DNA of 64,000 nucleotides from Candidatus Obscuribacteraceae bacterium. Its GTDB lineage: Bacteria; Cyanobacteriota; Vampirovibrionia; Obscuribacterales; Obscuribacteraceae. The first letter of the stretch is position 1. Each line of letters opens with the position of its first letter. Under the pieces are notes generated by a model. It was not told the origin of the DNA, searched no databases, and saw only the letters and a list, made by a program, of their open reading frames with translations. The DNA is taken from the NCBI GenBank assembly GCA_044226015.1, contig JBGAHS010000001.1, forward strand, positions 32,001-96,000, in the 5' to 3' direction. The position numbers and the translations under genes are program-made. Positions 12,220-64,000 of the stretch are shown here, one piece after another.

Positions 12220-12456
12220 CATAGGGCGCGCGTAGTGCTCTTCTCCTACATAAATCGCCTCGGAGCAGGGTCTGAACTTGTACCCTATTTGGCATTTGAA
12301 CCCAAGTTTTCGCACGTTACTTGCACGTGAAGGCTTGTATATTCTAAACATCCCGAGTAAATGCCAATTCGCAAGTCGTCGGGGACGTGCCCTCCAAATT
12401 CCTTGCCTAAAACAATCCGGCGACTTGCGAAAATCCAATTTACATACGGAAAATGT

Positions 12457-47575: not shown

Positions 47576-48247
47576 TTAATAAATGAGTTTTGTGGTGGTG
47601 TATGTTATTTCTGTTATTAGACTGTAGTCCAGGCGAGCGATTTCCGTTACTGTGAACGTGGCTTGAGAATAAAGTTGAATAGGCACTTCTTTTGACGGTT
47701 CAGTTGATGCGTTGAAGTCACACGAAGTCATGGTTTGGTATCGTCGGAGCGTAAATTTGTCCTTTTCGAGCCAAATCGTTGTCCTTAAACCAGAAGGCCT
47801 CTCCAAAACAAGCTTATAGCAGCTTATCCCCTCGATTTCTTCATCTTGCTTCGGGGTAATTTCTGAAAAGCCTTCGGTCCAAGCATTCATGTTCTCCTTA
47901 ACTGAGGGGAAAAGGATGCAAGGAATGACAAGTGCGCCTGAGCCGATCACTCCTGTAGCTTGTGCTAATGCTAAATACAAAGCTTTTGATTTGAGTCTCT
48001 TTGACAAGCCGTATGAGAAATAAGTTTCTGCGTCATCTGATTCAACAAGTCCTGTTCGGTTGTTTTTGTGCCATTCGAACTTGTATACGGCAGGGGCTTT
48101 GTATTTTGTGCAAAATTCAACACTAGGTTTTGGTCGATCATGGTCAGGAAAACTCCATTGCCGAATACAACCAACATCTTCGTATTCGCGACAAGACACA
48201 TATCGACTAATGAATTCCTCAAACACTGCTGGCACGTTCAATATCAT
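47576..48247 (-). CDS. Putative immunity protein of cassette 5 (possibly LolA-like fold)
   Basis: Directly follows the toxin tip; GAGGT RBS before the ATG at 48247; Y..c.eYeD.G start and EEIEGISCYKL...TTIWLEKDKFTLRR. Confidence 0.6.
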   Translation of the reverse strand: MILNVPAVFEEFISRYVSCREYEDVGCIRQWSFPDHDRPKPSVEFCTKYKAPAVYKFEWHKNNRTGLVESDDAETYFSYGLSKRLKSKALYLALAQATGVIGSGALVIPCILFPSVKENMNAWTEGFSEITPKQDEEIEGISCYKLVLERPSGLRTTIWLEKDKFTLRRYQTMTSCDFNASTEPSKEVPIQLYSQATFTVTEIARLDYSLITEITYTTTKLIY

Positions 48248-48251
48248 TACC

Positions 48252-49160
48252 TCACCACAATCTAAATCGCTTAATTGCATCCCATTGCGTTTTCAGTGCG
48301 TTCATAGCTTCGTTTAATGCTTGTTTCGATTGACCTAGGTTCCAAGCGATTGCGGGGTCAATGCCGTTAGCTGAAATACACTCCAAAAGAGATATGACAG
48401 CTCCAGTCAGGCACGTATCATAGGCCACAGGGCAAGGATTAATTTGGTGTTGAATTGAGTTTGGACCGTAAGATTCATAGCATGCTGCCTTTAGCGCATC
48501 ATAGCTCAGCAAACAGCTTTTGCTAGCACTTCCTGTTGGATCTAATTCATTGATTGCTTGGAGAAGATATTTTTCGCTGAGCCTGCCAGCTGTTCCCCGA
48601 AAGGGAAAAGGCAGCGTTTCACCTTTTCCATAGTCATTGGGCGTTAATCCTGTGAAATCGACGAAGTTAGTCGGGCCATTTCCAACGTAAACGTATAGAT
48701 TAGTTCCTCCTGCTTCCTCAAACGGATCTCTGTTGACAAACCTACCCCTTGAAGGAGCATATACTCTGAAGACCGGCATGTTAAGTCCGCTTCTAGAATG
48801 GTAGTAGTAATTTGCATACTGGAATTCTGCGTCGGCACTACCATTTAGTTTGACAACAAGCCCATAAGGATCATAATTGTACTGTGCTTCAATAGCAGTT
48901 ATTCCCCCCACAGTCTTAGTCAGTTCCCTGATGGAACCCAGGCGGTCTTTACTGTAAGAGTATTGATTGGAACCTGCAATGGTGAAGTTGACTTGTCCTT
49001 GATTCAAGAATTGTTTGCCAATACTCAGGCTACCTGACGCATCCCGTTCCTCACACCTAGCTGCCCCGCACCACAAATGCTGTTTCGTCGAAGTGACACT
49101 GCCAGCAGTGCGCTCTTCGATTTTCGTTGCGCGCGAAAGTGCATCATACGAAAATTGGGT
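48252..49160 (-). CDS. Orphan Rhs C-terminal toxin cassette 5 (no ATG start)
   Basis: Open from TQFSYDALSR; DRLGSIRE, YDPYG, GRFVNRDP, NLYVYV.N.P....DFTG, then a unique tip. Confidence 0.85.
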   Translation of the reverse strand, partial: TQFSYDALSRATKIEERTAGSVTSTKQHLWCGAARCEERDASGSLSIGKQFLNQGQVNFTIAGSNQYSYSKDRLGSIRELTKTVGGITAIEAQYNYDPYGLVVKLNGSADAEFQYANYYYHSRSGLNMPVFRVYAPSRGRFVNRDPFEEAGGTNLYVYVGNGPTNFVDFTGLTPNDYGKGETLPFPFRGTAGRLSEKYLLQAINELDPTGSASKSCLLSYDALKAACYESYGPNSIQHQINPCPVAYDTCLTGAVISLLECISANGIDPAIAWNLGQSKQALNEAMNALKTQWDAIKRFRLW

Positions 49161-49357
49161 GATGTTCCCAGTGCGATTTGATTGGATTTCAGAGACTTTT
49201 AAGATTAGCAGAGTCGCTTAGTTTGTCATAATTGTATTGCGCTTCAATAGCAGTTATTCCGCTTAGTCTGCTAGTCTTCCAACAGAGTTCAAAATGGAAA
49301 CGATGAAAATTAATCATTACGTCGAATCGATTCGAAACATATTACGCTCACCGGATC

Positions 49358-50056
49358 TTAAGTGCTGGGATTGGCGCGGAGCTGACAAATCAAAATTTTT
49401 TCCACAATTTCGTTCTTTATAGATATTCCGGACTCGTTTTCAACTAAAGATAAATCCAGAGATTGGTAAATCCGCAGTGCCTGCGCCCAGCGTTGTAGCT
49501 CCATAAGACTATCTGCTAAATTGATCTGATTTTCTAAATCAATTTCATCGGCGTTCGCTGAACGTAATTCAACTGCTTTTACAAAGCAGTCTAAAGCTTG
49601 TTCCAGATAAGCGGTCCTCATCGATGGATCACAGGGGTAATCCTTAAGGATCCTACCTTTTTGCGCCAGAAATCCATCATTTAGTGGAAACATCGAAATG
49701 GCCTTATCGGCAATTAAAAGTGCATCTTTGGCGACTTGGAGTTTCTCTGCAATTGATAATGGGTTCTTTTTTGTCATCCATTTGTGTATGGCCAAACTGA
49801 TCCATGTTAGAAACGTTCCCTCATCCTTCTCTGCAAGCTCGTAGATCGCGCAAACTGTCTTCCATCCAGCCGGAAAGTCCACTCGATGAGCAAGTACTAT
49901 TAGTCTTTCGTCCTCTGTAAATCCAGAATTTGCCGTGGACCTCAGGAAATGCCGGAGCTTGTCTTTGCTTATGAATTGGTCTACTTTTGTGTTGTCGAGC
50001 ACCGTCTGAAATTGCCGACCAGCATCTGTATTCCACTTATTAATGTACTCTGCCAT
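49358..50056 (-). CDS. Putative immunity protein of cassette 4 (TPR-like)
   Basis: GGAGGT RBS; start overlaps the toxin 3' end; helical TPR-like segments. Confidence 0.65.
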   Translation of the reverse strand: MAEYINKWNTDAGRQFQTVLDNTKVDQFISKDKLRHFLRSTANSGFTEDERLIVLAHRVDFPAGWKTVCAIYELAEKDEGTFLTWISLAIHKWMTKKNPLSIAEKLQVAKDALLIADKAISMFPLNDGFLAQKGRILKDYPCDPSMRTAYLEQALDCFVKAVELRSANADEIDLENQINLADSLMELQRWAQALRIYQSLDLSLVENESGISIKNEIVEKILICQLRANPST

Positions 50057-50903
50057 TAGACACCTCCATAAACCGGGTTGCCTGGCCAGGGCAGTAAAAT
50101 GGTATCAAATAAATCCACCATGGCAATTGTGGTGGAACAGCCTTGGGCAACGGTAGCGGCAGCCTGGTTTCGTCGTGGGATTTTTCAATTGGCTGCTTTT
50201 TCGGTATCGTTCGGTAATCTGGTGGTCTTTTGCCACAGTACTCCCAGCTTCCAGAAAATGTTTCGCCTTTTCCAACAGAATCATTGCATGCCGCGTCATT
50301 TTTGTAACAGCATCCTGGATCCCGACCAGCTTTCAAGCATTTTTGAGTCTGCTGCTCACAACAATCTTTGCTTGAGCAACAAGCTAATCCGTATGGGTCC
50401 ATGAATATTGTTGGAGCATTATTTGCGTATTCGAACAAATTCGTTCCGATATTTTCCCCAAGCGGATCTCTGCTTAACCACCGGGCGAATGAGGGTGCAT
50501 AGTTTCTGAAAAGCGTTTGGTTCATGCCTGAGTTCTGGTGGAAGTACATACCAGCGTAGCCGAAGTCTGAAAACGTTCCGCTCGTGCTTAAGTAAACAAG
50601 CCGTCCGTAAGGCTCATATGAAACTATAAGATCAATGAGTAAAGAGGCACCAGTAGTGTGCGTCATTTCTCTCACTGACCCCAGGTGATCAAATGTGAAG
50701 AAATGGGTTGTTGATGCACTCGCGGCAAATATCACCTCTCCTTTGCCAAAAAACTGCTTGCCATTACTCAAACTACCAGTGCCATCTCTTTCCTCGCACC
50801 TAGCGGACCCGCACCACAAATGTTGCTTTGTGGAAGTGACACTGCCAGCAGTGCGCTCCTCGATTTTAGTTGCGCGCGAAAGTGCATCATGCGAAAATTG
50901 GGT
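50040..50903 (-). CDS. Orphan Rhs C-terminal toxin cassette 4 (Cys-rich tip)
   Basis: TQFSHDALSR head; DHLGSVRE, RWLSRDP, DPYGL, then CCSSKDCC...CC...C. Confidence 0.85.
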   Translation of the reverse strand, partial: TQFSHDALSRATKIEERTAGSVTSTKQHLWCGSARCEERDGTGSLSNGKQFFGKGEVIFAASASTTHFFTFDHLGSVREMTHTTGASLLIDLIVSYEPYGRLVYLSTSGTFSDFGYAGMYFHQNSGMNQTLFRNYAPSFARWLSRDPLGENIGTNLFEYANNAPTIFMDPYGLACCSSKDCCEQQTQKCLKAGRDPGCCYKNDAACNDSVGKGETFSGSWEYCGKRPPDYRTIPKKQPIEKSHDETRLPLPLPKAVPPQLPWWIYLIPFYCPGQATRFMEVSNGRVH

Positions 50904-51158
50904 GATGTTTATGGTGGGAGAAGTCTTGATTTCGGTGAAGTCGAATGATGCAGCCAAAGTCTCTGGGTGAGAAGTCCGTCGTGCTTTTAATTCTTCCAGT
51001 GGAAGAGGTTCGAGGTTTCCGCATCCTCATGGTAATAAAAGTCAGCTGAATTCAAGGCTAAGCATTGCTCAAATTTTTGAAATGTGCATAACAGCGACCG
51101 CATCAACTATAATTTAAGTCATAGTTAGTTATGACTTACAAAAGTCCATTTTTTAGCC

Positions 51159-51761
51159 GTGGATCGATTTAAGGATTATTCGCAATTGAAAACATACTCG
51201 GACAAAGGGATCACCGAGTACGTTTCGGGGAATGGAGAGTTATTGCTTCTGGCAAGCTTTTCGACAACTTTTGAACGTGGCCAGTTGATTATCTTTGATT
51301 ACAAAAACGAAACCAGAACGCCGACAGTAGGACGCGACGGAAAATTACTTTTTAAGGGATTTAGCCCCTTTTTTCAATGCCGAATGGAATTCGATTTCAA
51401 GAATGGCCATCTGACCTACACTCCTGCGAGTCCTTCATTGAAGGAGCTAGGAAAAGGCGGTCAGCTCGTAGACTTGATTAGTGAAATAAGAATTGTCTCG
51501 ATAATTCCTTCTATGTTATTTGGACTCTATTCTCTGCCATTTGCAAACTCAGAATCGATCATTGTTCCATCAGAAGTTGAACTCGCAACAGGAACATCAA
51601 CTAGAAAAATCCGCTACAACAACAGTGGCTACATTGAGGAAATCATCAGAGACTCCGTACAGGAAGACCGCTCTGTTTTCCTTTCTGGATTGCAGCTAAC
51701 AAAATCTACTTCCTCTTACAACACTAAAATTCTGGTGGGAGAACATCGCTGGGAGGAGTAA
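51159..51761 (+). CDS. Hypothetical protein, possible orphan immunity gene
   Basis: 200-aa ORF; start YSQLKTYSDKG resembles YVSCREYEDVG in the 47576 gene. Confidence 0.5.
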   Translation: MDRFKDYSQLKTYSDKGITEYVSGNGELLLLASFSTTFERGQLIIFDYKNETRTPTVGRDGKLLFKGFSPFFQCRMEFDFKNGHLTYTPASPSLKELGKGGQLVDLISEIRIVSIIPSMLFGLYSLPFANSESIIVPSEVELATGTSTRKIRYNNSGYIEEIIRDSVQEDRSVFLSGLQLTKSTSSYNTKILVGEHRWEE

Positions 51762-51829
51762 CTCCCAGAATGCATAGCAGAATGTCCAATGAAAGTCTTG
51801 CTTCGTTCAACTGCAATCGATACTTTAAG

Positions 51830-51882
51830 GAAGGTTCCCAGCGGATTCAGCTCTGTGGTGACTCTACCCATTTCATCGAAGG
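51830..51882 (-). pseudogene. Short YD/Rhs repeat remnant
   Basis: Reads SFDEMGRVTTELNPLGTF. Confidence 0.55.
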
Positions 51883-52057
51883 ACCAACGTTTACCAGGCT
51901 CTGAGAATTCCAGACCACTCAACTGTCCCGGCTTATCAAATAACTCTCGCACTTTGCTTCGTGCTCAAATGGTGGCTCAAAGTTTTTGGCTAGATATGGG
52001 CATTACAGAGAATCGAGTATGTATACTGTATAGTGTTAGCCACTGTATGAGGCTCTA

Positions 52058-52435
52058 ATGACGTTTCTTATACATCAATGTCGGCACTTTATTCGACGAA
52101 CCGAACTAAGCGTACAAATTTTTTTTGGGTTCACTCCTGATTTCGAAAAATTAGATTACGTGTTTTACTCGCGCCCCCTCTTTTCCAAGGAAGGTTTGAT
52201 CAGGGATCACTTATCTTTACTCCCATTTGCAGACACCTCCTTGAAGCGAGTTGTTAAAGACTTGGGTGGTTGGGAGCATATTACAGATCCCGAGTATTTA
52301 CCGAATAGCGAAGAGTATGAAAGACTAGCCGAAGTCGGTTTTTCAAAGGATGATTTTAATAAAACTAGAGAGTATCTGTCCGATAGAAGCGCCTATAACC
52401 GAAGAGCCCTAGCTCGACAAAAGGAAAAGAAGTAA
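52058..52435 (+). CDS. Hypothetical protein convergent with cassette 3
   Basis: ATG with GAGG RBS, 125 aa, stops 13 bp from the cassette 3 stop. Confidence 0.55.
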   Translation: MTFLIHQCRHFIRRTELSVQIFFGFTPDFEKLDYVFYSRPLFSKEGLIRDHLSLLPFADTSLKRVVKDLGGWEHITDPEYLPNSEEYERLAEVGFSKDDFNKTREYLSDRSAYNRRALARQKEKK

Positions 52436-52448
52436 TCTCCTAATTTTT

Positions 52449-53297
52449 TCACTGACTAAGATTGACCGTTGCTCCGGGGAACTTCGTTAGACATTTATTA
52501 ATATCTTCTGCAAAATCAGTATCACAATCCTCCAGTTCCTGAGCTAGCACCGGATTGTTACTGGCTTCCGGCTCGTTGGCATGGCAGCCTAATTTGTCGC
52601 TCCGGCAATCATTCCATTTGTTCAGCGCTTTAAGAACACACATGTTCATTTTCATCTGAATAAAATTCATTTTGATATTTTTTATGGCGTTAGTGATTGC
52701 GTGCGCTGAAATCATCATAACGGCTGTGCTAGCCACGACGGCAGCGCCGACTGGGGTAAGGGCGATAGTCGCTGCCTGAGCATATCGACCGGACGGATCT
52801 ATATCCAAAGTTGGAGAGTTTTCTACATATCCGTAAAGATTCAACCCTCCTTTTTCTCCAATCGGATCTCTGTTGATGAATCTACCAAGAGCAGCATTAT
52901 AAGCCCTGTAGACCGGCATGCTGAGTCCACTTCTTCCATGCAGATAGTATCCTGCATATTGCATGTCAGCAGAGCTGGTGCCCGTCACAATGGTCTCAGC
53001 GACCACACCATAAGGATCATATGAATATCGGGTTTTAATGGCACCAGTGGAATCGGTCAGCTCTCTTATAGAGCCCAGGTGATCTTTGTTATAGAAATAA
53101 TTTGCGGGCGTGCCACCACTAAAGTTCACCTGGCCTCTGCTGAAGAATTGCTTACCATTGCTGAGACTGCCTGATGCATCTAGTTCCTCGCATCGCTCAC
53201 TCCCGCACCACAAATGTTGCTTCGTCGACGTAACACTACCTGCGGTGCGCTCTTCGATTTTCGTGGCACGCGAAAGTGCATCATACGAAAATTGGGT
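52449..53297 (-). CDS. Orphan Rhs C-terminal toxin cassette 3 (no ATG start)
   Basis: TQFSYDALSR head; DHLGSIRE, GRFINRDP, DPSG, then a hydrophobic helix and a Cys-containing tip. Confidence 0.85.
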   Translation of the reverse strand, partial: TQFSYDALSRATKIEERTAGSVTSTKQHLWCGSERCEELDASGSLSNGKQFFSRGQVNFSGGTPANYFYNKDHLGSIRELTDSTGAIKTRYSYDPYGVVAETIVTGTSSADMQYAGYYLHGRSGLSMPVYRAYNAALGRFINRDPIGEKGGLNLYGYVENSPTLDIDPSGRYAQAATIALTPVGAAVVASTAVMMISAHAITNAIKNIKMNFIQMKMNMCVLKALNKWNDCRSDKLGCHANEPEASNNPVLAQELEDCDTDFAEDINKCLTKFPGATVNLSQ

Positions 53298-53508
53298 GAT
53301 GTTTCCGGTGGGATTTGATTGGATTTCAGAGGTCTTTAAACACTTTACCCGCTACTATCAAAACGAGTTCAAGTAGGAATCGATATTGCGAAAGGGTGAA
53401 CATTTTGCCAAATCGATTCGAAGTCAACCTTTCAGCGCGAACCTGTTAGTAGTTGTACCGCATTATTCCAAACAAAGTCCCATTTCGTCACTCTTGAGGT
53501 GGAGGGAG

Positions 53509-54177
53509 TTACAATGCTGCATTAAGTCTATCGGAGAAAGGGATTCCTTTTTCAATATATTTAAGTCGAATTGAATCCCACGTATAAACATAAGCATGTA
53601 GGAGTTTTCCTCGGTCAACAACGTGGTTGGTAATGATCAGAGTTTTCGGAATTTTTCCTTCTTTTGACAGCACGAATTCTGGTTGATACAAGGATCCTGT
53701 TTCCAATACTTTCTGTATTTTTCCATGAGCGCAAAGGAATACGGTCGTCAAAATACTGCGTGGACCGTCTGAAAGAATAGCCATCTTATCATCCAGACGA
53801 AGGATGGAAATTGGTTTACCGTAGCAGAGTTCGTCAACATCATCGCCATTGTCAGAGCAATAAACTAATCTATTTTTTTTGTCAAAGATTTTTAGAACCG
53901 CTTGTTCCCCGGCTTTGCCCCTGAGCGCCCCAGGCGTTCTCATTATGCGAACAGAGTAGTGTTCAGTCTCGGTGTCGCTTTCGTTTCTAACAGTCCAATC
54001 GTAAAGAAACCAAAGTGAACTGTGTTGATCTCTCCACTTTCTCCAACGCGCAAGGCTTTTCACATCTGCTGTAGTTTTAGCTTTCACTGTTCGAAGCTCT
54101 TCATAGGCGTATCCGGCTGGCAACCAAAGAATCGCGGATATGAAAGACACAGCAAGCACATAAACCAATCCTGGCAT
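53509..54177 (-). CDS. Putative periplasmic immunity protein of cassette 2
   Basis: Starts 3 bp after the toxin stop; signal peptide MPGLVYVLAVSFISAILWLPAGYA. Confidence 0.7.
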   Translation of the reverse strand: MPGLVYVLAVSFISAILWLPAGYAYEELRTVKAKTTADVKSLARWRKWRDQHSSLWFLYDWTVRNESDTETEHYSVRIMRTPGALRGKAGEQAVLKIFDKKNRLVYCSDNGDDVDELCYGKPISILRLDDKMAILSDGPRSILTTVFLCAHGKIQKVLETGSLYQPEFVLSKEGKIPKTLIITNHVVDRGKLLHAYVYTWDSIRLKYIEKGIPFSDRLNAAL

Positions 54178-54180
54178 AAA

Positions 54181-55140
54181 TCATCCACCCTTGGACTTTT
54201 GTAAGCAGCCTTTATCGCACCGAGTCTTTTTAGCTTTTAAGCATTTTTCGCATTTTTGAATTGCTCCTAAATATCCGGGATCTCCACCACCAAATTTACT
54301 AATACCCTCCTCCAGCCCGAATTTACTGACGTAATACCCGGCAAGCATGGAACCCGCTCTCAAATTTTTTGCAGGATCTGACATTTCGCTCCACTTCGCA
54401 CCAACTTGGCTTGCAGATTGCTCGTTATATATTTGCAAAAGACCCTTTGCACCAGAGCCTTCTGTGTTGTCTACACTCGGCTCAAAATTATCGGGTGAGT
54501 GTGGAGTGCTTTCACGAAAAGCCATACATAACAAAAATTCCGTACCCAGTTGAGTCCCAACTGTGCCAGCTACGGTCTTGCCTGAATAGTTACAACCTCC
54601 GTCCAGCAACCTAGCAACTTGAACGCAAGTGAGAAGCCCTAGTGGGTCCAGGTAACGAATTGGATTTCCGCCAACATAGCTGTAAATATTTAAATCACCG
54701 GCTTCACCAATTGGATCTCTACTGAGCCATCTGCCTAATGAAGCTGAGTATTGACGAAACCAAGTCATGTTCAATCCACTTCGCATATGTGAGTAGTAAC
54801 CAGCATATTGAAAATCAGCGTCCTGTGAGCCTGAGATCTTGTTGACGACACCATATGGATCATAACCATACAGTGAAACAATGGTCCCTGAGCTATTAGT
54901 TAATTCCCTCACAGATCCAAGCTTATCTATGCAATAAAAATAATTAGATCCTGTGGCAGAATTAAAATTGATTTGTCCCATGCCGCAGAACTGCTTTCCA
55001 TTGCTCAAGCTTCCGGACAGATCTCGTTCTTCAGACTTCTCTGAATCGCACCATAAATGTTGCTTCGTCGAGGTAACACTGCTTGCGGTGCGCTCCTCAA
55101 TCTTCGTTGCGCGCGACAGTGCATCATACGAAAATTGGGT
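54181..55140 (-). CDS. Orphan Rhs C-terminal toxin cassette 2, lytic transglycosylase (SLT-like) tip
   Basis: TQFSYDALSR head; DPLGL; tip motifs MAFRES, GAKGLLQI, DPAKNLRAG. Confidence 0.85.
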   Translation of the reverse strand, partial: TQFSYDALSRATKIEERTASSVTSTKQHLWCDSEKSEERDLSGSLSNGKQFCGMGQINFNSATGSNYFYCIDKLGSVRELTNSSGTIVSLYGYDPYGVVNKISGSQDADFQYAGYYSHMRSGLNMTWFRQYSASLGRWLSRDPIGEAGDLNIYSYVGGNPIRYLDPLGLLTCVQVARLLDGGCNYSGKTVAGTVGTQLGTEFLLCMAFRESTPHSPDNFEPSVDNTEGSGAKGLLQIYNEQSASQVGAKWSEMSDPAKNLRAGSMLAGYYVSKFGLEEGISKFGGGDPGYLGAIQKCEKCLKAKKTRCDKGCLQKSKGG

Positions 55141-55191
55141 GATGTTTCCAGTGGGATTTGATTGGTTTTCAGAGGCTTTTAACGAGCTGAC

Positions 55192-55515
55192 CTAGCGACA
55201 GGAATTAAGTGCGCTAAAAGTCCGGGGCGGTGTTTTCGTTTGCTCAAGAACAATTCTGCGATCTAGCCAAACGGATTGAAGATGATCGTGGTTCCAAAAG
55301 CTGAGCTGGTCAAGCTCTTTCGCTAAAATGCTTGCCTTTGCAAAGTAGTCTTCAGCGGTTTTAAGGGAATGATTGCGGACTGCATCGTTTCCACATTCGA
55401 TGAGCCTTGCAAGTTCTATGTTCTTCGATCTAACTATGCCGTAATAGCCCACAAGAAGTCCCACAGACAGTGAGGCAAAGATCCTTTTTGACTTCGAGGA
55501 AAATTCTATATTCAT
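55192..55515 (-). CDS. Small membrane-anchored protein, possible orphan immunity gene
   Basis: 107 aa, N-terminal TM helix and one TPR-like helix pair; follows a decayed Rhs fragment. Confidence 0.5.
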   Translation of the reverse strand: MNIEFSSKSKRIFASLSVGLLVGYYGIVRSKNIELARLIECGNDAVRNHSLKTAEDYFAKASILAKELDQLSFWNHDHLQSVWLDRRIVLEQTKTPPRTFSALNSCR

Positions 55516-55611
55516 TATTCAGTGCGTATGTGTAAGGATTTACGTCCTTTCGGTCAAACGAGGGAGTCAACTGCTGGCTGATTGAAACCAGGGTTTGGTT
55601 TCACATTGTAA

Positions 55612-55818
55612 TCAATACCGGCATGTAACGTTGTTCCTGGCCCAGCATCGTGAGTCTTTGTAAGCTAGTGGATCACGGGAAAAAAATGCCCCACGAACTG
55701 GCTCATACAATCTGTACACTTGCGCAATTAAACCATTCCGGGAAAGACGATAATAGCCGGCGAAACCGAAGTCTGATTCGCGTGTCCCTGCAATTTTGAT
55801 TGATTGACAATAATACAT
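55612..55818 (-). pseudogene. Decayed Rhs core fragment
   Basis: ESDFGFAGYYRLSRNGL..QVYRLYEPVRGAFFSRDPL; lacks the head and the tip. Confidence 0.7.
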
Positions 55819-55943
55819 ACGACTTCGACATTGACGTTGTTGTTCGCCAGATTAGGCTACTACGAGTTCTCGGTTTCCTGAACTTACGCTTCTTCCCAAT
55901 CGTATTCTGATTTCAACGTATGTTGGATAGTTCTCTGCACGAA

Positions 55944-56588
55944 TTAAGGTGCATTGTCGACAATTGATTTGTCGGTTTCTATAATTGCCTCAATCGCGGA
56001 GGCGACTCTTTTCAATGTTTCATTACGGGATTTTTTCGCAAGAGACAGGTAACTAGGCAGCATTGTTGAGCGACAGGCTAGCAGCATATTTAGTGCGGTT
56101 ACCTTGTCTAGTGGTTTCTTTGATGTCCACCACAATTGAGCATATGATTCAGATTGGCTCCAGCCTGTCCCGGCTAGCAGTTGCGCCGCGTTGTCTCGAA
56201 TCACTTCACTGAAATCACTCAAAAGAAAATGCATTGCTAGCCGTTCTCTCAATGCAGAGTCTCTCAACCTTCGGCACCGCAGAAGAAAATACAATCTAAT
56301 TGATTCCTCTGGATACGGAAGAATTGCCAACTTTGATATCTCGTCATCAGAAATTGATTTAACAAGCAGTTGTGATTGCCAATCCAGAGTTATTACGTGT
56401 TTTATTGCAAGATGTTCTTTCTTGGTCCAAGCCAATGGTGCAGAATCACAAAGCAACTCACAGAAGTCCTTGACCAGTTCGGCTAGGTTTGAATAGTTAC
56501 TCAAAGAACAATTCTCTTCCTCGATCAATTTAAGGTGCTTCTTCAAGTTCGAAATTTTTTCTTTAAGGATCATTACATTCTTCATCAT
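55944..56588 (-). CDS. Putative immunity protein of cassette 1 (helical/HEAT-like)
   Basis: Start overlaps the toxin 3' end; SDFSEVIRDNAAQLL is a HEAT-like segment. Confidence 0.6.
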   Translation of the reverse strand: MMKNVMILKEKISNLKKHLKLIEEENCSLSNYSNLAELVKDFCELLCDSAPLAWTKKEHLAIKHVITLDWQSQLLVKSISDDEISKLAILPYPEESIRLYFLLRCRRLRDSALRERLAMHFLLSDFSEVIRDNAAQLLAGTGWSQSESYAQLWWTSKKPLDKVTALNMLLACRSTMLPSYLSLAKKSRNETLKRVASAIEAIIETDKSIVDNAP

Positions 56589-57492
56589 CTACAGCTGGGG
56601 TGTCGCCTGTAAAGCCACCATTGCATCTTCTTACGCAATAGCTCAAATATTGCACAGCCCAGAGAACACAACACTTGTATTTTCTTGGGTCTGGGTCGCA
56701 TCCGCCCGGTCCGTACATTTTATCGCAATAACCAGCACCAAGTTCTTTTGTATTATGCAGAGCATCAAATTTTTGATGACAACAGCGAAGACATCTCACC
56801 TTAGTACCATCTTGACACTCGAGAAATGGAAATTCATTTGGACGACCAATCGCAAAGTCTTCAGGCCAGGGAGTGAATTGTCTCTTTCGTGGCTTTGCCG
56901 CGTTCATTGTTAGTGGAATGCTAACAGGCGCCCCTGATGCACAAGCGCCTCCAGCGCATCCCATAAGACCTGTGTGGTCTACCCAGCGGATTGGATCATT
57001 GGAAACGTATGAATATAAATTTGGACCAGCGTTTTCACTTAGCGGATCTCTGCTAAGCCATCGACCATTAATTGAGGAATATACTCGATAATACGTCAGA
57101 TTTAAGCCAGATCTGACGTGTAGATAGTAATCTGCATACTGAAAGTCCGCGGAAAGAGTGCCTTGGACTTTGGTGACATCTCCATAAGGTCCATATGCGT
57201 ATTGCGCGACTATAGCGCCAGAGCTATCTGTCATTTCCCTTATACTTGAGGGAGGCGCATCCTTTGTAAATTGGTAGTTTGTACTTGAACCAGCATTAAA
57301 GTCTCGCTGTCCTCTTGCGAAGAATTGTTTACCGCTACCAAAGCCGCCGGTTAGGTCACGCTCCTCGCAACGTTCAGACCCGCACCACAAATGCTGCTTC
57401 GTAGAAGTGACACTGCCAGCGGTGCGCTCCTCGATTTTCGCTGCACGCGAAAGTGCGTCATACGAAAATTGGGTGTTTTTGTATGTGTCCAA
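56563..57492 (-). CDS. Orphan Rhs C-terminal toxin cassette 1 (Cys-rich tip), recombinase-proximal
   Basis: TQFSYDALSR head at 57474 (possible TTG start at 57492); GRWLSRDP, DHTGL, then a tip with many Cys. Confidence 0.85.
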   Translation of the reverse strand: MDTYKNTQFSYDALSRAAKIEERTAGSVTSTKQHLWCGSERCEERDLTGGFGSGKQFFARGQRDFNAGSSTNYQFTKDAPPSSIREMTDSSGAIVAQYAYGPYGDVTKVQGTLSADFQYADYYLHVRSGLNLTYYRVYSSINGRWLSRDPLSENAGPNLYSYVSNDPIRWVDHTGLMGCAGGACASGAPVSIPLTMNAAKPRKRQFTPWPEDFAIGRPNEFPFLECQDGTKVRCLRCCHQKFDALHNTKELGAGYCDKMYGPGGCDPDPRKYKCCVLWAVQYLSYCVRRCNGGFTGDTPAVDDEECNDP

Positions 57493-57521
57493 ATGCCGGA
57501 ACTGCCCTGCAGGAATGGATT

Positions 57522-58592
57522 CTAAGAAGTGCTGCTGGAATTCTTGCGAATTTTGTTTGGTGCTTCTTCGTGCCCCATAAGTTTGAGGAAATTGTTCGTA
57601 ATTTTCTCCATCGGCTGCCGTAATCTCTCCACGTCAATGACCAAATATCCAAATGTGGTGTCATTCTTTACGGAATGATTAGCTAGTTTTTTCAATGCAT
57701 AATGAGGAATTCCAAGGCTCTCAGCCTTCGTCAAAAACGTGCGGCGCAGGTCGTGAATTGTAAAGTGACAGTTTGAATGCTCTCGAAGTTTTTGAAGCGT
57801 CGCATCAAAGTGCGTGATGCCAGCACGTCTCCCTGGAAACACAAAATCTGATTTGCTAGAAGCAAACCGTCTCTTTAAGAGCCTTGTCAGAAAACTGCTG
57901 AGAGGGAGTACATGCGCTCTATGGTTTTTAGTTCTCTCTCCATCAATGGCGACAGTTTTTGCTTCGAAATCGATGTCCGACCATCTCAAGGAGGCGGCCT
58001 CAGCTCTCCTGAAACCAGTGAGCAATACGAAGAGAAGATAGTCGCGGACTGTTTCGCTTCGCACAGTCTTCAGAGCCGAATACCACCGAGTCAATTTAGA
58101 GTCTGGAATCATGCCCTGCCTTACAGTCGCCCGATACCAGCGCTTATTTTGTGTAAGCACGTCAACTGGGTTGTTTCTCAATAGCGGGCGCCCGTTTTTC
58201 TCATGATAACGACGAAGAGCGAAATTGAAGAGCATTCTCATAATGCGCATCACCATGTTGGCCTGAAGCTTGCTTGCTTCTGTTGAGTGCGTACCGATAT
58301 CTGAGTGCTTCTTCTCAATCATTGCCGAGCTAATTGAAGACAATGGTAGGTCTATCCAATCACTCAGATGGTGCGCAACAAGAGCGTTGTAGATGCGAAC
58401 AGAAGACTGACGCAATTCTGGCTTCGACTCTAAATAATCTCTGAGAACAGTTCTAAGCGTTTTTCCTCTAGATTTCTTTTTAGAGACCTGGCGCTTTGCG
58501 AAGCTGGTTTGCTTAATGCGATTCTCAATCCTTGAGACTAGACCCGGGCCGCTTTTGATTCTAACCATCACAATAATTCTTAGTTCAGTCAT
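57522..58592 (-). CDS. Tyrosine recombinase/integrase
   Basis: Complete catalytic set: TGFRRAE (R), TKNHR (K), HDLRR (H-x-x-R), LANH (H), TFGY (Y); SAM-like core-binding domain; GGAG RBS before ATG 58592. Confidence 0.93.
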   Translation of the reverse strand: MTELRIIVMVRIKSGPGLVSRIENRIKQTSFAKRQVSKKKSRGKTLRTVLRDYLESKPELRQSSVRIYNALVAHHLSDWIDLPLSSISSAMIEKKHSDIGTHSTEASKLQANMVMRIMRMLFNFALRRYHEKNGRPLLRNNPVDVLTQNKRWYRATVRQGMIPDSKLTRWYSALKTVRSETVRDYLLFVLLTGFRRAEAASLRWSDIDFEAKTVAIDGERTKNHRAHVLPLSSFLTRLLKRRFASSKSDFVFPGRRAGITHFDATLQKLREHSNCHFTIHDLRRTFLTKAESLGIPHYALKKLANHSVKNDTTFGYLVIDVERLRQPMEKITNNFLKLMGHEEAPNKIRKNSSSTS

Positions 58593-58932
58593 GTGCTTCT
58601 CCACAAATTTTTTTCCAGTTTGGAGATTGGCACTACACATAACTCAAACAAGTTGAACAGACTCATTAGAATGCAATTCGAATTGAAGTTGCGTTCTCTC
58701 ATTTCCCATGCAAACGTGTCTTTTGATGGTGTTAGAAAGCTTTGCTCCACGAAGAGCAAAAAGAGTTACCTCTTCCGCTTGTTCATTAAATTCTGAGTTT
58801 GTGGTTCGAGGGGGATGTATTTCTGTGTCATCAAAGATATACTCCTCCAATAAATTTCTTCCCGGTTGAAAGATAACAACTGGTGCACTGCGTCAAGTGC
58901 CCCAGGCATGCCGTTTCTAAAGGAGCGACGTA

Positions 58933-59790
58933 ATGTCAAAATTTGCGACAATGGCCCTTTCGTTGAGCATTTGTATTTTTGGAAATTTGATTCCAGCAAA
59001 TGCCCAATGTGTTGGCGGAAGTCCTTCATCAGCGGTCACGTCTATAGATGAAACTGGGAATTTTCCATCAAGTCGTATGTTGGTGGACGGGCTAGGAACG
59101 ACCGTGGACACTGGCACCGCAGGAAAGATAAAAGTAAATGTTAGCGCCCTGATTGCTGCACCGCAGCGGGTGGGTTGGTGGACGCCTCTCACGACTGCGG
59201 CAACGACGTTCAGCGCAGTGGGCATGACTGCCGTACCTACTGCATCTGGCACTGCAGCCAATGCTAGTGGCACATCAGGCAACTTGATAAAATACAGTAC
59301 AGCGACAACGGTGAATGCAGTTGGCGGAATTCGGTCAACTGCATTCACTGACGCGCGATATCAGTACTCGCCAACATTTGCTACGAGAGTACGTACCAGC
59401 GCCTCTGGAATAGCGAGCCAACGAATATGGATAGGACTGGCGGCAAGCAACCCCAGCGGAAGTGCTACGCCAACAGCTAATCTCGCCTCATTTCGATATG
59501 ACACCGGTGCTGGCGATACGACGTGGAAATGTGTGAGTTCAAATGCTTCCACAAACACGGTGGTTGACAGTGGAGTTACAGTTGCTACAAGTACTACTTA
59601 CGACATGTTTGTAGACAGCTCCGATCCTTCAAAACTCGTGTACACAATTAACGGTGCTATTGTTGCAACGATCACTACTAATTTGCCAGTGGACAATACA
59701 AACATCGGACCGAATATTTCAATCACAAATCTCCTGGCGGGAACTGCTCGAGATTTGAGCGTCGGCACAACTAGAATCCAGCAATATTAG
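58933..59790 (+). CDS. Secreted Thr/Ser/Gly-rich beta-strand protein, first gene of the Rhs operon
   Basis: AAGGAG RBS; signal peptide ending ANA; lectin-like beta-sandwich appearance. Confidence 0.7.
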   Translation: MSKFATMALSLSICIFGNLIPANAQCVGGSPSSAVTSIDETGNFPSSRMLVDGLGTTVDTGTAGKIKVNVSALIAAPQRVGWWTPLTTAATTFSAVGMTAVPTASGTAANASGTSGNLIKYSTATTVNAVGGIRSTAFTDARYQYSPTFATRVRTSASGIASQRIWIGLAASNPSGSATPTANLASFRYDTGAGDTTWKCVSSNASTNTVVDSGVTVATSTTYDMFVDSSDPSKLVYTINGAIVATITTNLPVDNTNIGPNISITNLLAGTARDLSVGTTRIQQY

Positions 59791-59800
59791 TGAGGTAACT

Positions 59801-61123
59801 TTGAAAACTGTGAAAAAGTGGTCAAATCATTGTTTTGCGCTTGCTGTTGTATTTCTTGCAGCGCAGCCAGTATTAAGCGCAACGGCTCCAACGCCCTTTA
59901 TTGGAACTGCTGGAGAAATGCTCTCTCCGAAAACGGTCACTATGGGAGTTAAGGCTTCCATTGGGAACTCTATCCACTTTACAACCGACGGAAGTACGCC
60001 TAACGGAGCTAGCACAACCTATCTCAATCCATTCACAGTAACAACTTCTACAACGTTAAAAGCCATTTCCATCGACGGCTCGCCCAATCCCGTAGCTACA
60101 TTGTACATCGATCTGCCGTCAGTGTATCTGGATGCCGAAGAAGGCATTGTTCCAGCTACTGGAAATCCCAACCCAGTGATTGTTTGGACTGACCAATCAG
60201 GAAATTCTAATAGTGCAAGTGCCATTAGCGGACAAGATCCAAAGTTACTTCCAAATTCAATCAATGACTTAGCCGCAATTGAATTCTCGGGACAATATTT
60301 CAACCTTCCTGCTGGTTTTGCTGATTTCACAAAAGGCGTAAGCATATTCATAGTCGCTAAGACTGCCTCCTTGACCGCTGGAGCTACTTTGCTCGATATC
60401 GGCAATGGCAGCAGCGGAAATAACATAAAAGTGCGGATTTCGAATACGGGTTCTAAAGCTGAGTTCGATGTCTATAGTGGTACCACCAGCAGTGCCGCGC
60501 AATCAGCCAGTGCTCTCAGTACCAGTGAGTACACTCTAATTGAAGCTGTGCTTGTTCCGAATGTCTCGGGAACTGATGCGACCGGAACTATCTATGTAAA
60601 TGGGCAGGCTGGAACGCCAGTCACAAACATGTTTTTAGCAGCAAATACAAGTAGGTCTATTAATACAATAGGTGCTGCTGCTGCTGGGTCCAGTCCGTAC
60701 AGCGGAAAGATCGCAGAGCTGCTTATTTTTCCAAACGCTATAAATAATCGACAAGATGTCGAGGCAGTTCTGCTGCAAAAATTTGATTTATTGCGTCAAC
60801 AGCCTCCCACACCACAGATCAGCGTTGCGGGAGGAAATAAGAACGGTCCAACGCAAGTCGTTATAAGTTCGGCAGATGACACATCCGTCCTTCACGTGAC
60901 CACCGACGGAACGACGCCGAACGCCTCCTCTCCCATTTTCAATGGCTGCCCTATTCTCATTAACTACACCACGACGCTGAAAGCTATCGCAGTAAAGAAT
61001 GGAATTTCCAGCAGCGTTGCTTCCGAAACCTATACCCTCAACGCCGACCAATGCCCGACTCCGAGCCCATCGGATATGGTTGCGCCCACAATAAATTTAA
61101 CCGTGCCTGTTCAAAGTCAATAA
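59801..61123 (+). CDS. Secreted protein with two chitobiase/Fn3-associated (CHB_HEX_C-like) modules flanking a LamG-like domain
   Basis: IHFTTDGSTP...TTLKAI and LHVTTDGTTP...TTLKAIA; WTDQSGN...YSGKIAELLIF; GAGGT RBS and TTG start. Confidence 0.75.
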   Translation: MKTVKKWSNHCFALAVVFLAAQPVLSATAPTPFIGTAGEMLSPKTVTMGVKASIGNSIHFTTDGSTPNGASTTYLNPFTVTTSTTLKAISIDGSPNPVATLYIDLPSVYLDAEEGIVPATGNPNPVIVWTDQSGNSNSASAISGQDPKLLPNSINDLAAIEFSGQYFNLPAGFADFTKGVSIFIVAKTASLTAGATLLDIGNGSSGNNIKVRISNTGSKAEFDVYSGTTSSAAQSASALSTSEYTLIEAVLVPNVSGTDATGTIYVNGQAGTPVTNMFLAANTSRSINTIGAAAAGSSPYSGKIAELLIFPNAINNRQDVEAVLLQKFDLLRQQPPTPQISVAGGNKNGPTQVVISSADDTSVLHVTTDGTTPNASSPIFNGCPILINYTTTLKAIAVKNGISSSVASETYTLNADQCPTPSPSDMVAPTINLTVPVQSQ

Positions 61124-61139
61124 AAGCGAAGAAGAGAAA

Positions 61140-64000
61140 ATGAAATTTATCAGAATGAATAACCGCTCGCGTTCGGCACTATTGATGGTGCTCCTATTGC
61201 TTAGCATGGTGCCTTCGCAAATGGTTTTATCTGCGCCTGCTGAACGCATTTCAATAAAAAAGCAGCATGAGGCTAGCAACACTGCTAACCCACGCCCAAA
61301 AATTGAAATTGGCGACTCATCGCTTTCATTTCCTGCGTCCCCCACGGACAGTGATCTCATAAATTGCCACGTATTTTTGGAGCCATTAGCACCGTCTGAT
61401 CAAGATGTTAATCAAAAGGAAAACAAAGAGCTTGCGACCGCAATCCTGAAGTATCTAAAAAGGCAGAAATCAGAAGATGTATCTGCACTTACTTCATTCT
61501 TGCAGTCTAATCCTAAGTCACGATGGACGGCTTCTCTCGCGTTGAATGTTGCGCAAAAATTGTTTGATGCGGGTTATCTAAATGAAGCAGCCGATTACTG
61601 GGAAAAATCATGGAATCTGTCTAAAGATAAGAAAGATCCGGCGATGAAAATGGTTGCAAACTCAGCCGTATCGCATTTGGTGCAACTGGAAGCTCGCCTC
61701 GGGTTAGCGGAAAAGCTCGAAGAACATTTGAGATTAGCTTCTTCACGTGTAATGGCGGCGTCAGATATGTTGCGGCTAAAAGCTGCACAAGATGGACTCT
61801 GGACCATGAACCAAAATGAAGGCATTGCCTTCAAATGTGGTCCATATGGGCTAAAGTCCCTTGCACTTTCAAAAAGCCCTGGGCTGCAAACCACTCGCTC
61901 ACCTGAAGAAGTTGATCAAATAATCAAAACCGCAGATTCCACGAAGCGTGGAACAAATCTAGAGCAGTTGAAAGATCTTGCTCGTAAATTGGATTTGGAC
62001 CTTTCACCTGTTAAGCGTAAGTCCGGATCTCAGATTCCAGTTCCTAGCCTCGTGCATTGGTCCAAAGGACACTTTGCTGCCATTCTCGAAGAGTCCAATG
62101 GTTTTTACAAAATCGAAGATCCTACTTTCGATTCTGACGGAACAAAATGGGTGAGCGCAGCTGCTCTTAATGCTGAGAGCGATGGCTATTTCATGATTCC
62201 TTCTGACAAAGTGGGCGCAAACTGGATTACGCTCGACGATAGCGAAGCAAGAAATGTTTGGGGAAAAGGTTATGCCGCGCTTCCTCAACAATTCAAAACT
62301 CCTTATTGCCCAAAAACACCTTGCGCTGGTGGTAATTGCAAGCCCAAGGGAGGATCTGGAGGAGGACCTGATTCGTGTGGTATGCCTGTAGCGTCAGCGT
62401 TTTCAATGAATGCCACCTTGAACATCGTGGATACGCCATTGACGTATTCGCCACCAGTAGGGCCTGAAATGGGGGTAGTTGTAAATTACAACTACAATGA
62501 GGGACAACAACCATCAACGTTTTCTTTCACCAACCTGGGGCATAACTGGAGCCTGAACTGGCTCTCTTACCTTACCATTGATAGCACAGACCCAATCCAC
62601 CGGATAGTTAACGTACGCGTCCGTGGTGGAGGTTATGAGACATACAAGGAGGCATTCAACCACGATGCTTATTCACTGGCGATCATTGCAGAAGTCAACA
62701 ACGCTGGCGTGATTAGTTGGGAGCGACGGATGCCGGACGGAAGTGTCGAGAAATACGAAAGAAAAAATGCAGCAGGCGACACATTCTTTCTAACGCAAGT
62801 ACTCGACCCGCAAGGTAAAGCTGCAGTTTTAGCCTATTCTTCAAACACTGTGACTGACCCAGGCTATTTCCGCCTGGCTTCGATAACAGACGCTTGCGGC
62901 AACTCTCCAATGACTGTTGCGTATGACTCAAACATCTCAACAGACCCTGGCTATTACAAGGTAACCGGGGTGACAGATGGCTTTGGTCGCTCAGCGAGTT
63001 TTGCTTATAGCGCAGATAAGAGCCAGTTGTTGAGCATGACGGATGCAGTTGGTAACCAATCTAGCTTTCGCTATCAGACGGATACGGACTCGACTTTCAT
63101 CAATCTCATGGTGTCACCGTACGGCAGTACGCAATTCTATCGCTACACTCCTGGAGGTGATACCGACACTGTTCCAGAAGGACTAAAATTCACATTGCCA
63201 GACGGAACAAGCACTCGCATCGAAAATTGGTTGAGTTCTATCAAACAAACTTACTTCTGGGATAGAGAAGCCTCTGAAATGTATCCCAACGATGCGTTCA
63301 ACAATGTGTACACACATTGTCAGACCACAAGATGGCTTTTTATTTCGAATTCTATAGAGTCTTCAATCCCTAGCTGGACTAGGAAGCCATTGGAAGCCCC
63401 CGTGAACTATTACAGCGTTGGACAAAGTGGGCAGAATGCAACTTCGGCTGGCGGTCTTACGCGATATCAGCAGATTGCCCAGCAGCTGGTGCCAATAAAA
63501 AATAGTATCACTGTTGGTGGCACCGTTACCGCGGGTAATCTAATCAAGGTTCAAATTCGTGATTTAGGACTTATTGATTCAGGAGACATTGTTCTCTCGT
63601 ACCAGGTCGTCTCTGGCGATACTATTTCTACTATCGCCGCCGGGCTTGCACAGAGTTTCAACAATGATCGGTATTGCCAGGGATATGGCATAACAGCGGC
63701 TGCAGTGGGGAACGTGATAACAGTAACTTCTCTTACTGCCAATGATTTTGACAGTAGCAAATTTGCAAATTTATCGGGTTCAATAACAGAGACCTTAACT
63801 TTTGCGTCTGGAACCAACCGGGTTCAGAACTTCAGTTTCAGCGGCACTCCTACTGCAGGACAGGTGTATGCAATTACTGTTACGGATTCCAGCCTGCCTG
63901 GTGGCTCTCAAACAGTGAGTTATACAGTTCAGGCTGGCGATAGCAATTCAGATATCGCGCAAGCACTTTCACTTGCAGTAAACGCAAATACGAACCTGCA
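61140..64000 (+). CDS. Large Rhs/YD-repeat protein with signal peptide, TPR-like region and C39-like cysteine peptidase domain (partial, runs off the window)
   Basis: Translated by hand, no stop seen in the segments read, and absent from the ORF track, consistent with no in-window stop: MKFIRMNNRSRSALLMVLLLLSMVP...; FKCGPYGL, VHWSKGHFAAI, IEDPTF; YD repeats LTQVLDPQG, LASITDACG, VTGVTDGFGR, LLSMTDAVGN. Confidence 0.88.
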   Translation, partial: MKFIRMNNRSRSALLMVLLLLSMVPSQMVLSAPAERISIKKQHEASNTANPRPKIEIGDSSLSFPASPTDSDLINCHVFLEPLAPSDQDVNQKENKELATAILKYLKRQKSEDVSALTSFLQSNPKSRWTASLALNVAQKLFDAGYLNEAADYWEKSWNLSKDKKDPAMKMVANSAVSHLVQLEARLGLAEKLEEHLRLASSRVMAASDMLRLKAAQDGLWTMNQNEGIAFKCGPYGLKSLALSKSPGLQTTRSPEEVDQIIKTADSTKRGTNLEQLKDLARKLDLDLSPVKRKSGSQIPVPSLVHWSKGHFAAILEESNGFYKIEDPTFDSDGTKWVSAAALNAESDGYFMIPSDKVGANWITLDDSEARNVWGKGYAALPQQFKTPYCPKTPCAGGNCKPKGGSGGGPDSCGMPVASAFSMNATLNIVDTPLTYSPPVGPEMGVVVNYNYNEGQQPSTFSFTNLGHNWSLNWLSYLTIDSTDPIHRIVNVRVRGGGYETYKEAFNHDAYSLAIIAEVNNAGVISWERRMPDGSVEKYERKNAAGDTFFLTQVLDPQGKAAVLAYSSNTVTDPGYFRLASITDACGNSPMTVAYDSNISTDPGYYKVTGVTDGFGRSASFAYSADKSQLLSMTDAVGNQSSFRYQTDTDSTFINLMVSPYGSTQFYRYTPGGDTDTVPEGLKFTLPDGTSTRIENWLSSIKQTYFWDREASEMYPNDAFNNVYTHCQTTRWLFISNSIESSIPSWTRKPLEAPVNYYSVGQSGQNATSAGGLTRYQQIAQQLVPIKNSITVGGTVTAGNLIKVQIRDLGLIDSGDIVLSYQVVSGDTISTIAAGLAQSFNNDRYCQGYGITAAAVGNVITVTSLTANDFDSSKFANLSGSITETLTFASGTNRVQNFSFSGTPTAGQVYAITVTDSSLPGGSQTVSYTVQAGDSNSDIAQALSLAVNANTNL

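Follow-up and report, generated by a model that had tools for sequence, protein, structure and literature searches.

How can the silent C-terminal ends of an Rhs gene be brought into use when they lie on the opposite strand to the full-length gene and on the other side of a recombinase gene? This question is raised by a 64,000-nt stretch of the genome of Candidatus Obscuribacteraceae bacterium (Cyanobacteriota, Vampirovibrionia, Obscuribacterales; NCBI GenBank assembly GCA_044226015.1, contig JBGAHS010000001.1, positions 32,001 to 96,000 of the forward strand), hereafter called the window. The contig is referred to as C11, the window being C11:32001-96000, and C11 numbering is used for positions beyond the window end. 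In the last part of the window, five silent Rhs cassettes (c1 to c5, counted away from the recombinase), each with its own tip, are followed by a tyrosine recombinase gene on the same strand and, on the opposite strand, by the 5′ part of a full-length Rhs gene, the body. The initial annotation had proposed that this arrangement serves as a recombinase-driven inversion switch. We consider it probable that a dedicated recombinase swaps Rhs tips at a short core sequence, here by inversion, and that the library of tips is stocked by integration. This proposal builds on what the sequences show, namely the sites, their orientation and frame, the intact catalytic residues of the enzyme, the missing arm-binding domain and the link between one integrase clade and Rhs.

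Silent heads, partner site and crossover point

The sequence CACCCAATTTTCG was found exactly at window positions 49161, 50904, 53298, 55141 and 57475, always on the minus strand (the initial annotation numbered the heads by their first codon base, and the exact-match positions used here are higher by 1). Five co-oriented heads with a common start point, as first described, were thereby recovered, and the early statement that about 32 codons are nearly identical before the cassettes diverge is borne out by near-identity over approximately 96 nt and divergence thereafter. An ATG start had been reported as lacking; an in-frame ATG upstream is indeed present in 0/5 heads, and in two of the five an in-frame TTG lies a few codons upstream of the site. 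The long gene on the opposite strand beyond the recombinase, also reported initially, encodes an Rhs protein of 2309 aa that begins with a signal-peptide-like segment and contains a peptidase C39-like domain, YD repeats and a TIGR03696 match. If the arrangement allows inversion, this gene should contain the head sequence, and further plus-strand cassettes might follow it. The site is present at C11:99088 (core C11:99088-99094), 3088 bases beyond the window end, on the plus strand, where it encodes TQFSY at residue 1984 in frame and is inverted relative to c1-c5. One further silent cassette lies past the body on the plus strand, in the orientation of the body (C11:100925-101801).

A second locus at C11:1,238-1,289 kb follows an alike divergent plan, with 12 silent heads and one body-type fragment inverted on the left of its body and three silent heads on the right, so that in the two C11 loci together the silent heads are upstream and inverted in 17/21 cases. 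Identity to the body begins at the first base of CACCCAA in all 21 silent heads: bases 0-17 match in 20 or 21 of them, base -1 in two and base -3 in none. The 30 nt that precede the site in the body occur in 0/21 silent heads and in all three body-type copies, and the exchange would therefore take place at or just after the first core base; the copy at C11:1261350 is variable and of the body type. Among the 24 sites on C11 the 7-bp core is fixed, the right arm is nearly invariant and the left arms vary. A relaxed form of the site has 30 matches in this genome, none in the reversed control and at most two in any of 400 other genomes of the class, so the site is not a chance pattern. In viral contigs the site pattern had no match.

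A footprint of exchange is seen at the second body, where two right parts unrelated to each other, one on each side, are preceded by an identical 433-bp left flank, and the identity stops 18 bp into the site. Conversely, three right parts that are 92-96% alike over about 730 bp stand behind different arms, in both orientations. The left-arm and cargo module at 50905..51830, which fronts c4, is 96.5% identical to a module of the second locus that fronts a different tip.

The near-identity of the heads over some 96 nt could also be expected from classical C-terminal displacement, in which silent tips are exchanged by homologous recombination and the recombinase is a mobile-element bystander. Orphans of the classical kind occur in this genome and in its relatives. 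Classical displacement predicts, according to the available part of PMC2935791, core fragments of variable length in body orientation, whereas here 21/21 heads share one start base and 17/21 are inverted; moreover, some heads share just 18-21 bp with the body. We find this account hardly credible for the present locus, and two further lines of evidence given below, the distribution of Rhs linkage over the integrase tree and the form of integrase-free loci, also stand against it.

The recombinase and its family

The tyrosine recombinase lies 47 bp from the first head, as stated in the initial annotation, and that it is intact is supported by its PF00589 match and by the retention of R211, K238, H296, R299, H322 and Y332. 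An arm-binding domain was not found in it, and PF13356 was found in 3/3 relatives scanned; a decayed arm domain upstream of the gene was considered as well and discarded, no significant profile match being obtained. None of the NCBIfam family cut-offs was reached by the protein (TIGR02249, IntI: 20.6 bits versus a cut-off of 265). The enzyme nests among arm-domain integrases of the IntS/P4-like kind. The arm domain is likewise missing from its four closest homologs, among the best 120 of 1503, and these group with the window enzyme in one clade (support 100/99; IQ-TREE, 32 rows).

Homologs at E 1e-40 were present in 69/104 genomes of the family, and so common an integrase could be taken as the bystander of classical displacement. 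For the analysis of their surroundings, 80 stretches were fetched around listed integrase matches by rank, with some short contigs skipped, so that part of the matches was covered, and 20 more were fetched around Rhs cores; fetched stretches carry the prefix L (L011 covers part of the window), and G000 denotes the genome of the window. All 39 integrases with an Rhs core within 6 kb, out of 97, fall into one clade of 56 that includes the window enzyme (FastTree support 97). Rhs linkage required 6 changes on the integrase tree versus 26.9 when shuffled, a contrast that near-copies inflate. With a more sensitive profile, an RHS core was detected near 8/14 checked clade members first scored as unlinked and near 1/40 checked integrases outside the clade. 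The expectation of the initial annotation that homologs of the recombinase are tied to Rhs arrays thus holds for one clade (39/39 of the linked integrases; 1/40 outside), and linkage that follows a single integrase clade speaks against a bystander. L064, from the sister clade, has as its neighbour a head whose start falls near the codon at which the heads of the window begin. Judged from sequence, the enzyme belongs to the arm-less subclade of an Rhs-associated integrase clade of the Obscuribacterales.

Outside these genomes, the 16 best of 80 viral-contig integrase loci had no Rhs match, and a metagenome scan returned a single full-length homolog with more than 40% identity, whose 2.5-kb contig carries no Rhs. 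The homolog P0003 had no copy and no match above 55% identity in 107 genomes of the order; P0001 is encoded on a 260-kb contig from a sister lineage.

Integrase modules of approximately 1.5 kb in L048, L060 and L065 are 85-94% alike between genomes of two genera while their flanking tips differ, which suggests transfer of the module. A subclade of arm-domain integrases (G000:C4:23998-28097, L054, L055, L091, L095 and L099) has the RHS core 5′ of the integrase and on the opposite strand and is a second element design in the Rhs-associated clade.

Rhs loci in related genomes

In the relatives, 87 cores were examined, of which 56 are of the body type, 28 have a fixed start and 3 are neither. The 28 fixed-start heads come from 15 genomes and 9 genera and match a body at base 0 in 27/28 cases and at base -1 in 10/28; their fixed start lies 30 nt upstream of the crossover point of the window genome. 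An integrase is found at most 3 kb upstream of 22/28 fixed-start heads versus 2/56 body-type cores, the former number being inflated by the choice of loci around integrases and by several heads sharing a locus. The first 7 bases equal those of a body on the same contig in 17/19 cases, with 2.5 expected from other genomes, although shared ancestry alone would raise this count. When the 151-bp head was used as DNA query, 0/40 relatives gave a match. The integrase-free loci L130, L132, L135, L138 and L145 have long body-type overlaps instead, as have the arrays at the ends of contigs C5 and C3 of the window genome; this difference would not be expected if fixed starts arose by classical displacement.

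The layout of these loci leads to a rival account in which the enzyme acts by integration and excision only: circles of tip and immunity gene would be inserted at the core, the recombinase-side site s1 would be attI-like, the inverted layout would be a frozen rearrangement and there would be no switch. Many relatives have tandem units of body, tip, immunity gene, integrase and next tip, and integrase-free units share arm sequence with integrase-bearing ones (L052/L053). The three right parts of about 730 bp behind different arms also favour this account, since inversion cannot create them, and no flipped state was seen in the metagenome run X1. On the other side, two divergent loci are present in this genome and the back-to-back platform is kept in another lineage (run X3, see below), the arm domain of the relatives' integrases has been lost in a whole subclade, and the arrays of this genome contain neither integrase remnants nor attC-like hairpins, the 80-nt site regions of the 24 heads folding no better than shuffles consistently (z < -2 on either strand in 3/24). 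A tyrosine recombinase able to pair these cores is, furthermore, expected to invert the DNA between opposed ones. For these reasons integration and excision alone are regarded as an unlikely explanation of the window locus.

Proposed mechanism and its weighing

According to the mechanism that we favour, swapping of tips at the core, the enzyme would bind the conserved right arm and exchange strands within CACCCAA. Recombination of the body site with any site of the left array would invert the intervening DNA without loss, fusing the body in frame to a new tip and parking the old one. A crossover at a more distant left site would carry cassettes to the right array, and therefore fits the presence of tips on both sides. 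Because inversion cannot add cassettes, an integration step is proposed in addition, in which cassette circles integrated at the same core would restock the library; the tandem tip-immunity-integrase units of the relatives, with their arm-domain integrases, point to integration as the ancestral, library-building step. The second C11 locus has no enzyme of its own and would be either supplied in trans or a relic, and the product would likely be an antibacterial Rhs toxin that is secreted and paired with a cognate immunity gene. A wider history, towards which we lean somewhat, is that an integrase lineage of the Obscuribacterales became aimed at a fixed 7-bp site in Rhs and that a mobile, re-arming element of tip, immunity gene and integrase was domesticated into a reversible shufflon with at least 20 tips and several loci in trans, the arm domain being lost and the crossover moving by 30 nt in the process.

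The symmetry of s1 bears on this mechanism. The arms of s1 form a 9/10 inverted repeat around the core, a value reached at 13/200,000 random positions; the palindrome was spotted in hindsight, and its chance rises to several percent once every setting and site is taken into account. In X3 the sequence differs at the one mismatched base, which makes the repeat 10/10. The palindrome is nevertheless persuasive because it sits exactly at the homology edge, beside the enzyme, and is complete in X3. Arm symmetry as a general feature of the sites was rejected, the sites of the relatives being no better than other settings.

Read-derived evidence consisted of 31-mer contigs from four runs (two samples, two studies), of which X1 is probably from the source sample (about 12x) and X3 is from another study. 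In X3, the site, the recombinase, the ORFs (open reading frames) P1 and P2 and the body lie back-to-back on one 8957-bp contig, and the next contig ends just past the body site; the platform is therefore not an assembly artefact. Compared with the window, the X3 contigs differ at 48 positions of 1578 bp in the recombinase piece and at 161 of 1157 in the body piece, and in recombinase codons 286-342 the changes listed are at third positions in 7/7 cases. X3 represents an independent sludge lineage that keeps the recombinase-Rhs platform; its contigs have no cover over the tips, which was not counted as absence. Opposite-strand joints in X3 were considered as inversions and rejected, their basis being head sequences 80% alike over 40-126 nt. 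In run X2, one contig joins the recombinase side to another cassette, has c1 letters up to +68 and switches inside a 34-nt block identical in both; it was discounted because 31-mer assembly can itself join over such a block.

Several observations weigh against a working switch. In X1, contigs break at or near most heads, and one 7449-bp contig runs unbroken through s1 into c1; inversion between s1 and the body is therefore not common in X1, and the contig is weak evidence against frequent flipping at s1. A flipped junction was not seen in the contigs of the four runs, in which rare variants are dropped by 31-mer assembly. The usual layout in the relatives is tandem (P2, body, tip, immunity gene, cargo, integrase, arm, next tip) with few inverted cases, and the divergent layout is limited to the two loci in this genome, the central platform alone being found also in X3. 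No cognate recombinase was found in the second locus, whose body lacks the first 323 residues. As to the sites, s1 is the sole symmetric one of 24, the other 23 having 3-5/10, and the arm symmetry of the relatives' sites averages 3.7/10 versus 3.75 in other settings. Within the highly identical part of the heads, perfect blocks reach 50 bp, a length that suffices for some homologous exchange. The arm-less homologs were compared at the protein level, and the selection of the relatives' loci and the late notice of the palindrome, both mentioned above, count on the same side. Finally, Ntox37, a listed polymorphic toxin domain (PMC3482391, available part), was matched by one of the 21 tips scanned (E 1e-19), the sole match above a toxin family cut-off. 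Two tips have weak enzyme matches (M91, SLT) and 3/16 downstream ORFs match DUF4279; because so few match known families, the toxin and immunity roles are deduced from Rhs architecture.

As a result, the inversion switch of the initial annotation is retained in part. The inverted body site, the plus-strand cassette, the Rhs-linked homologs and sites resembling the sfx sites of the R64 shufflon agree with it, while the contigs hold no flipped state, X1 speaks weakly against it and inversion alone cannot explain the family.

A switch that once worked and is now frozen or very rarely active would account for some of these observations. The second locus, without enzyme and body 5′ end, contains two truncated cassettes, one degenerate head and transposon-like insertions, a single arrangement dominates at s1 in X1, and a promoter and terminator scan around the recombinase gave no more than shuffles, this simple scan finding no promoter-like site upstream of the start. 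Such a relic is nevertheless quite improbable in view of the intact catalytic residues, the third-position bias between lineages, the open frames of 282-345 codons in 19/21 silent heads and the 100% identical 451-bp pair of arm plus site, which points to a recent event. Site-specific action of an enzyme at the core, past or present, is the common ground of tip swapping by inversion, of integration alone and of the relic.

Relation to known systems

In the R64 (IncI1) shufflon, the 7-bp core of the sfx sites has a conserved arm on its right and a variable arm on its left (PMC11852207, available part). As far as the available description of R64 goes, both systems place a tyrosine recombinase (Rci in R64) beside alternative C-termini, those of pilV in R64, share the design of core, right arm and left arm, and have opposed sites, one of them inside the gene, whose 3′ end is exchanged in frame. 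Unlike R64, in which a pilus adhesin is the target, the locus described here concerns an Rhs polymorphic toxin with immunity genes; its enzyme is an arm-less offshoot of arm-domain integrases; and the gene body itself lies inside the invertible segment, between two divergent arrays, with up to 21 silent tips in two loci and with inversion as a prediction. On the sequence features compared, namely the adjacent recombinase with its catalytic residues and the design, orientation and frame of the sites, the locus would work like a shufflon.

Arm-domain integrative elements of the IntS/P4 kind restore the 3′ end of their target gene. The loci of the relatives resemble them in the PF13356 integrase next to an att-like core, the direct repeats, the cargo and the near-identical integrase modules across loci and genera. 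They differ in that the incoming 3′ end is a new toxin tip with an immunity gene, and the window enzyme has lost the arm domain and lies between opposed sites, whereas the sites are direct in the relatives' tandem loci. With integrons, the locus shares start-less modules arrayed by a tyrosine recombinase and one special site on the enzyme side, but the enzyme is not IntI by the TIGR02249 cut-off, attC-like hairpins are lacking and the cassettes are gene ends rather than whole genes.

Rhs orphan arrays were described in PMC2935791 (Jackson 2009), in the available part of which silent tips reach the expressed Rhs gene by homologous recombination via a proposed circle and no integrase is known with Rhs. 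The full-length Rhs gene with YD repeats and core, together with silent modules of core, tip and immunity gene, is common to both, and the proposed circular intermediate would explain the tandem arrays of the relatives; in contrast to those orphans, the start is here fixed to one base and tied to an integrase clade, and the orphans are mostly upstream and inverted. On the features compared, the locus is neither an integron nor an arm-domain element nor a classical orphan array.

Recombinase genes near Rhs or immunity arrays have been noted before. In the available parts of these sources, integrase-like genes near Rhs in bee-gut bacteria are left open in their role (PMC5727410), Xer or integrase genes are mentioned near poly-immunity loci (PMC3482391; Stenotrophomonas preprint, bioRxiv 10.64898/2026.07.13.738213), dif sites surround vgrG clusters (PMC10210955), and no evidence for an integrase was found in effector displacement in Vibrio (PMC5361080). 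A capture role is suggested for the recombinases in PMC5727410, PMC3482391 and bioRxiv 10.64898/2026.07.13.738213, whose available text states no site, crossover point, clade or tip-switch mechanism. A search of full-text literature, with most subscription papers and supplements outside its reach, returned no recombinase-driven switch of Rhs tips and nothing on Rhs in Obscuribacterales.

For the access to silent tips, the locus supplies a named enzyme, a 7-bp crossover core and a testable product. If the proposal is true, clonal cells could change their toxin and immunity identity in a programmed manner, with consequences for kin discrimination and bet-hedging, and the family would show a route from an integrative element to a shufflon. 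Under the wider history given above, the system would be a first programmed, recombinase-driven warhead switch of a polymorphic toxin, with both evolutionary stages in view. A further gain would be a new pair of recombinase and site, with many asymmetric sites of natural origin, together with a collection of tips and immunity proteins, most of them without family assignment.

Features of the window and further observations

The coordinates of the features are collected in Table 1. The initial annotation assigned most tips their own downstream gene. A same-strand ORF overlaps or abuts the tip stop in 4/5 cassettes; behind the third tip (head 53298) a convergent ORF is found instead. Over both C11 loci, an overlapping ORF on the same strand likewise lies behind most tips, and a convergent ORF behind several.

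Table 1. Features at the recombinase and the five-cassette array, in window positions
Feature	Position	Strand	Description
Predicted immunity gene of c5	47576..48280	-	234 aa, overlaps tip stop; no Pfam match; role from position
Silent cassette c5	48252..49171	-	Site (core 49155-49161), Rhs core end, 130-aa tip
Predicted immunity gene of c4	49358..50056	-	232 aa; weak TPR-like matches below cut-off
Silent cassette c4	50040..50914	-	Site (core 50898-50904), core end, 115-aa tip
Left-arm and cargo module fronting c4	50905..51830	+	200-aa plus-strand ORF at 51159-51761
Convergent ORF behind c3 tip, candidate immunity gene	52058..52435	+	125 aa
Silent cassette c3	52449..53308	-	Site (core 53292-53298), core end, 112-aa tip
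Predicted immunity gene of c2	53509..54177	-	222 aa, hydrophobic N-terminus
Silent cassette c2	54181..55151	-	Site (core 55135-55141), core end, 151-aa tip with weak SLT (lytic transglycosylase) match, E 0.003, below cut-off
Extra ORF in c1 cassette	55192..55515	-	107 aa
Predicted immunity gene of c1	55944..56588	-	214 aa, overlaps tip stop
Silent cassette c1	56563..57474	-	Rhs core end (TIGR03696, E 1.6e-18), 133-aa tip
Recombinase-side site s1	57459..57485	-	Left arm 57476-57485 (10 bp), core CACCCAA 57469-57475, right arm 57459-57468 (10 bp)
Tyrosine recombinase	57522..58640	-	372 aa; PF00589, E 3e-21; ends 47 bp before first head
ORF P1	58933..59790	+	285 aa, signal-peptide-like N-terminus, no family match
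ORF P2	59801..61123	+	440 aa; LamG and Fn3/chitobiase domains
Full-length Rhs gene, 5′ part	61140..64000	+	Whole gene C11:93140-100069, 2309 aa, extends past window end

Seven tips have a convergent ORF abutting their stop (window 52058-52435; L013:8797-9222; L014:2716-3315, 7167-7835 and 8953-9630; L015:9160-9840 and 11818-12279), and such ORFs, if they are immunity genes, would need their own promoters. About 100 bp of the predicted c1 immunity gene (56448-56549) are repeated just past the right end of the second locus (C11:1289522-1289654) and are also found in X3.

Homologs of P2 regularly precede the Rhs body across the family (L048, L052, L059, L095, L123, L126, L130, L133, L139 and L140), and the P2-type protein with LamG and Fn3 domains is a candidate partner in delivery or receptor binding. 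Within the Rhs 5′ end, 32 bp (L011:12191-12222, window 61210-61241) match contigs of X1 and X2 whose flanks are not in the genome assembly; the match may reflect a spacer, or another organism may match here by chance.

Insertions interrupt the second locus at C11:1250354-1260619 and 1281836-1284788, among them three RIT-like tandem tyrosine recombinase genes. Judged by their motifs, a reverse-transcriptase-like fragment and an IS66-like element are also present, the latter occurring in the C3 array as well. No tRNA targets were found in the two C11 loci.

Elsewhere in the genome, four contig ends (the start of C3 and the ends of C3, C5 and C13) cut through Rhs cores whose reading direction points into the contig, and the assembly contains no body that matches them. 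The ends of C3 and C5 carry classical long-overlap orphans, and the start of C3 and the end of C13 carry six more heads with a fixed start, which share the 7-bp core and have a related right arm. It is possible that a body missing from the assembly sits between divergent arrays. In the window itself, a minus-strand ORF at 43996-44889 contains imperfect 42/84-bp repeats at 44569-44778.

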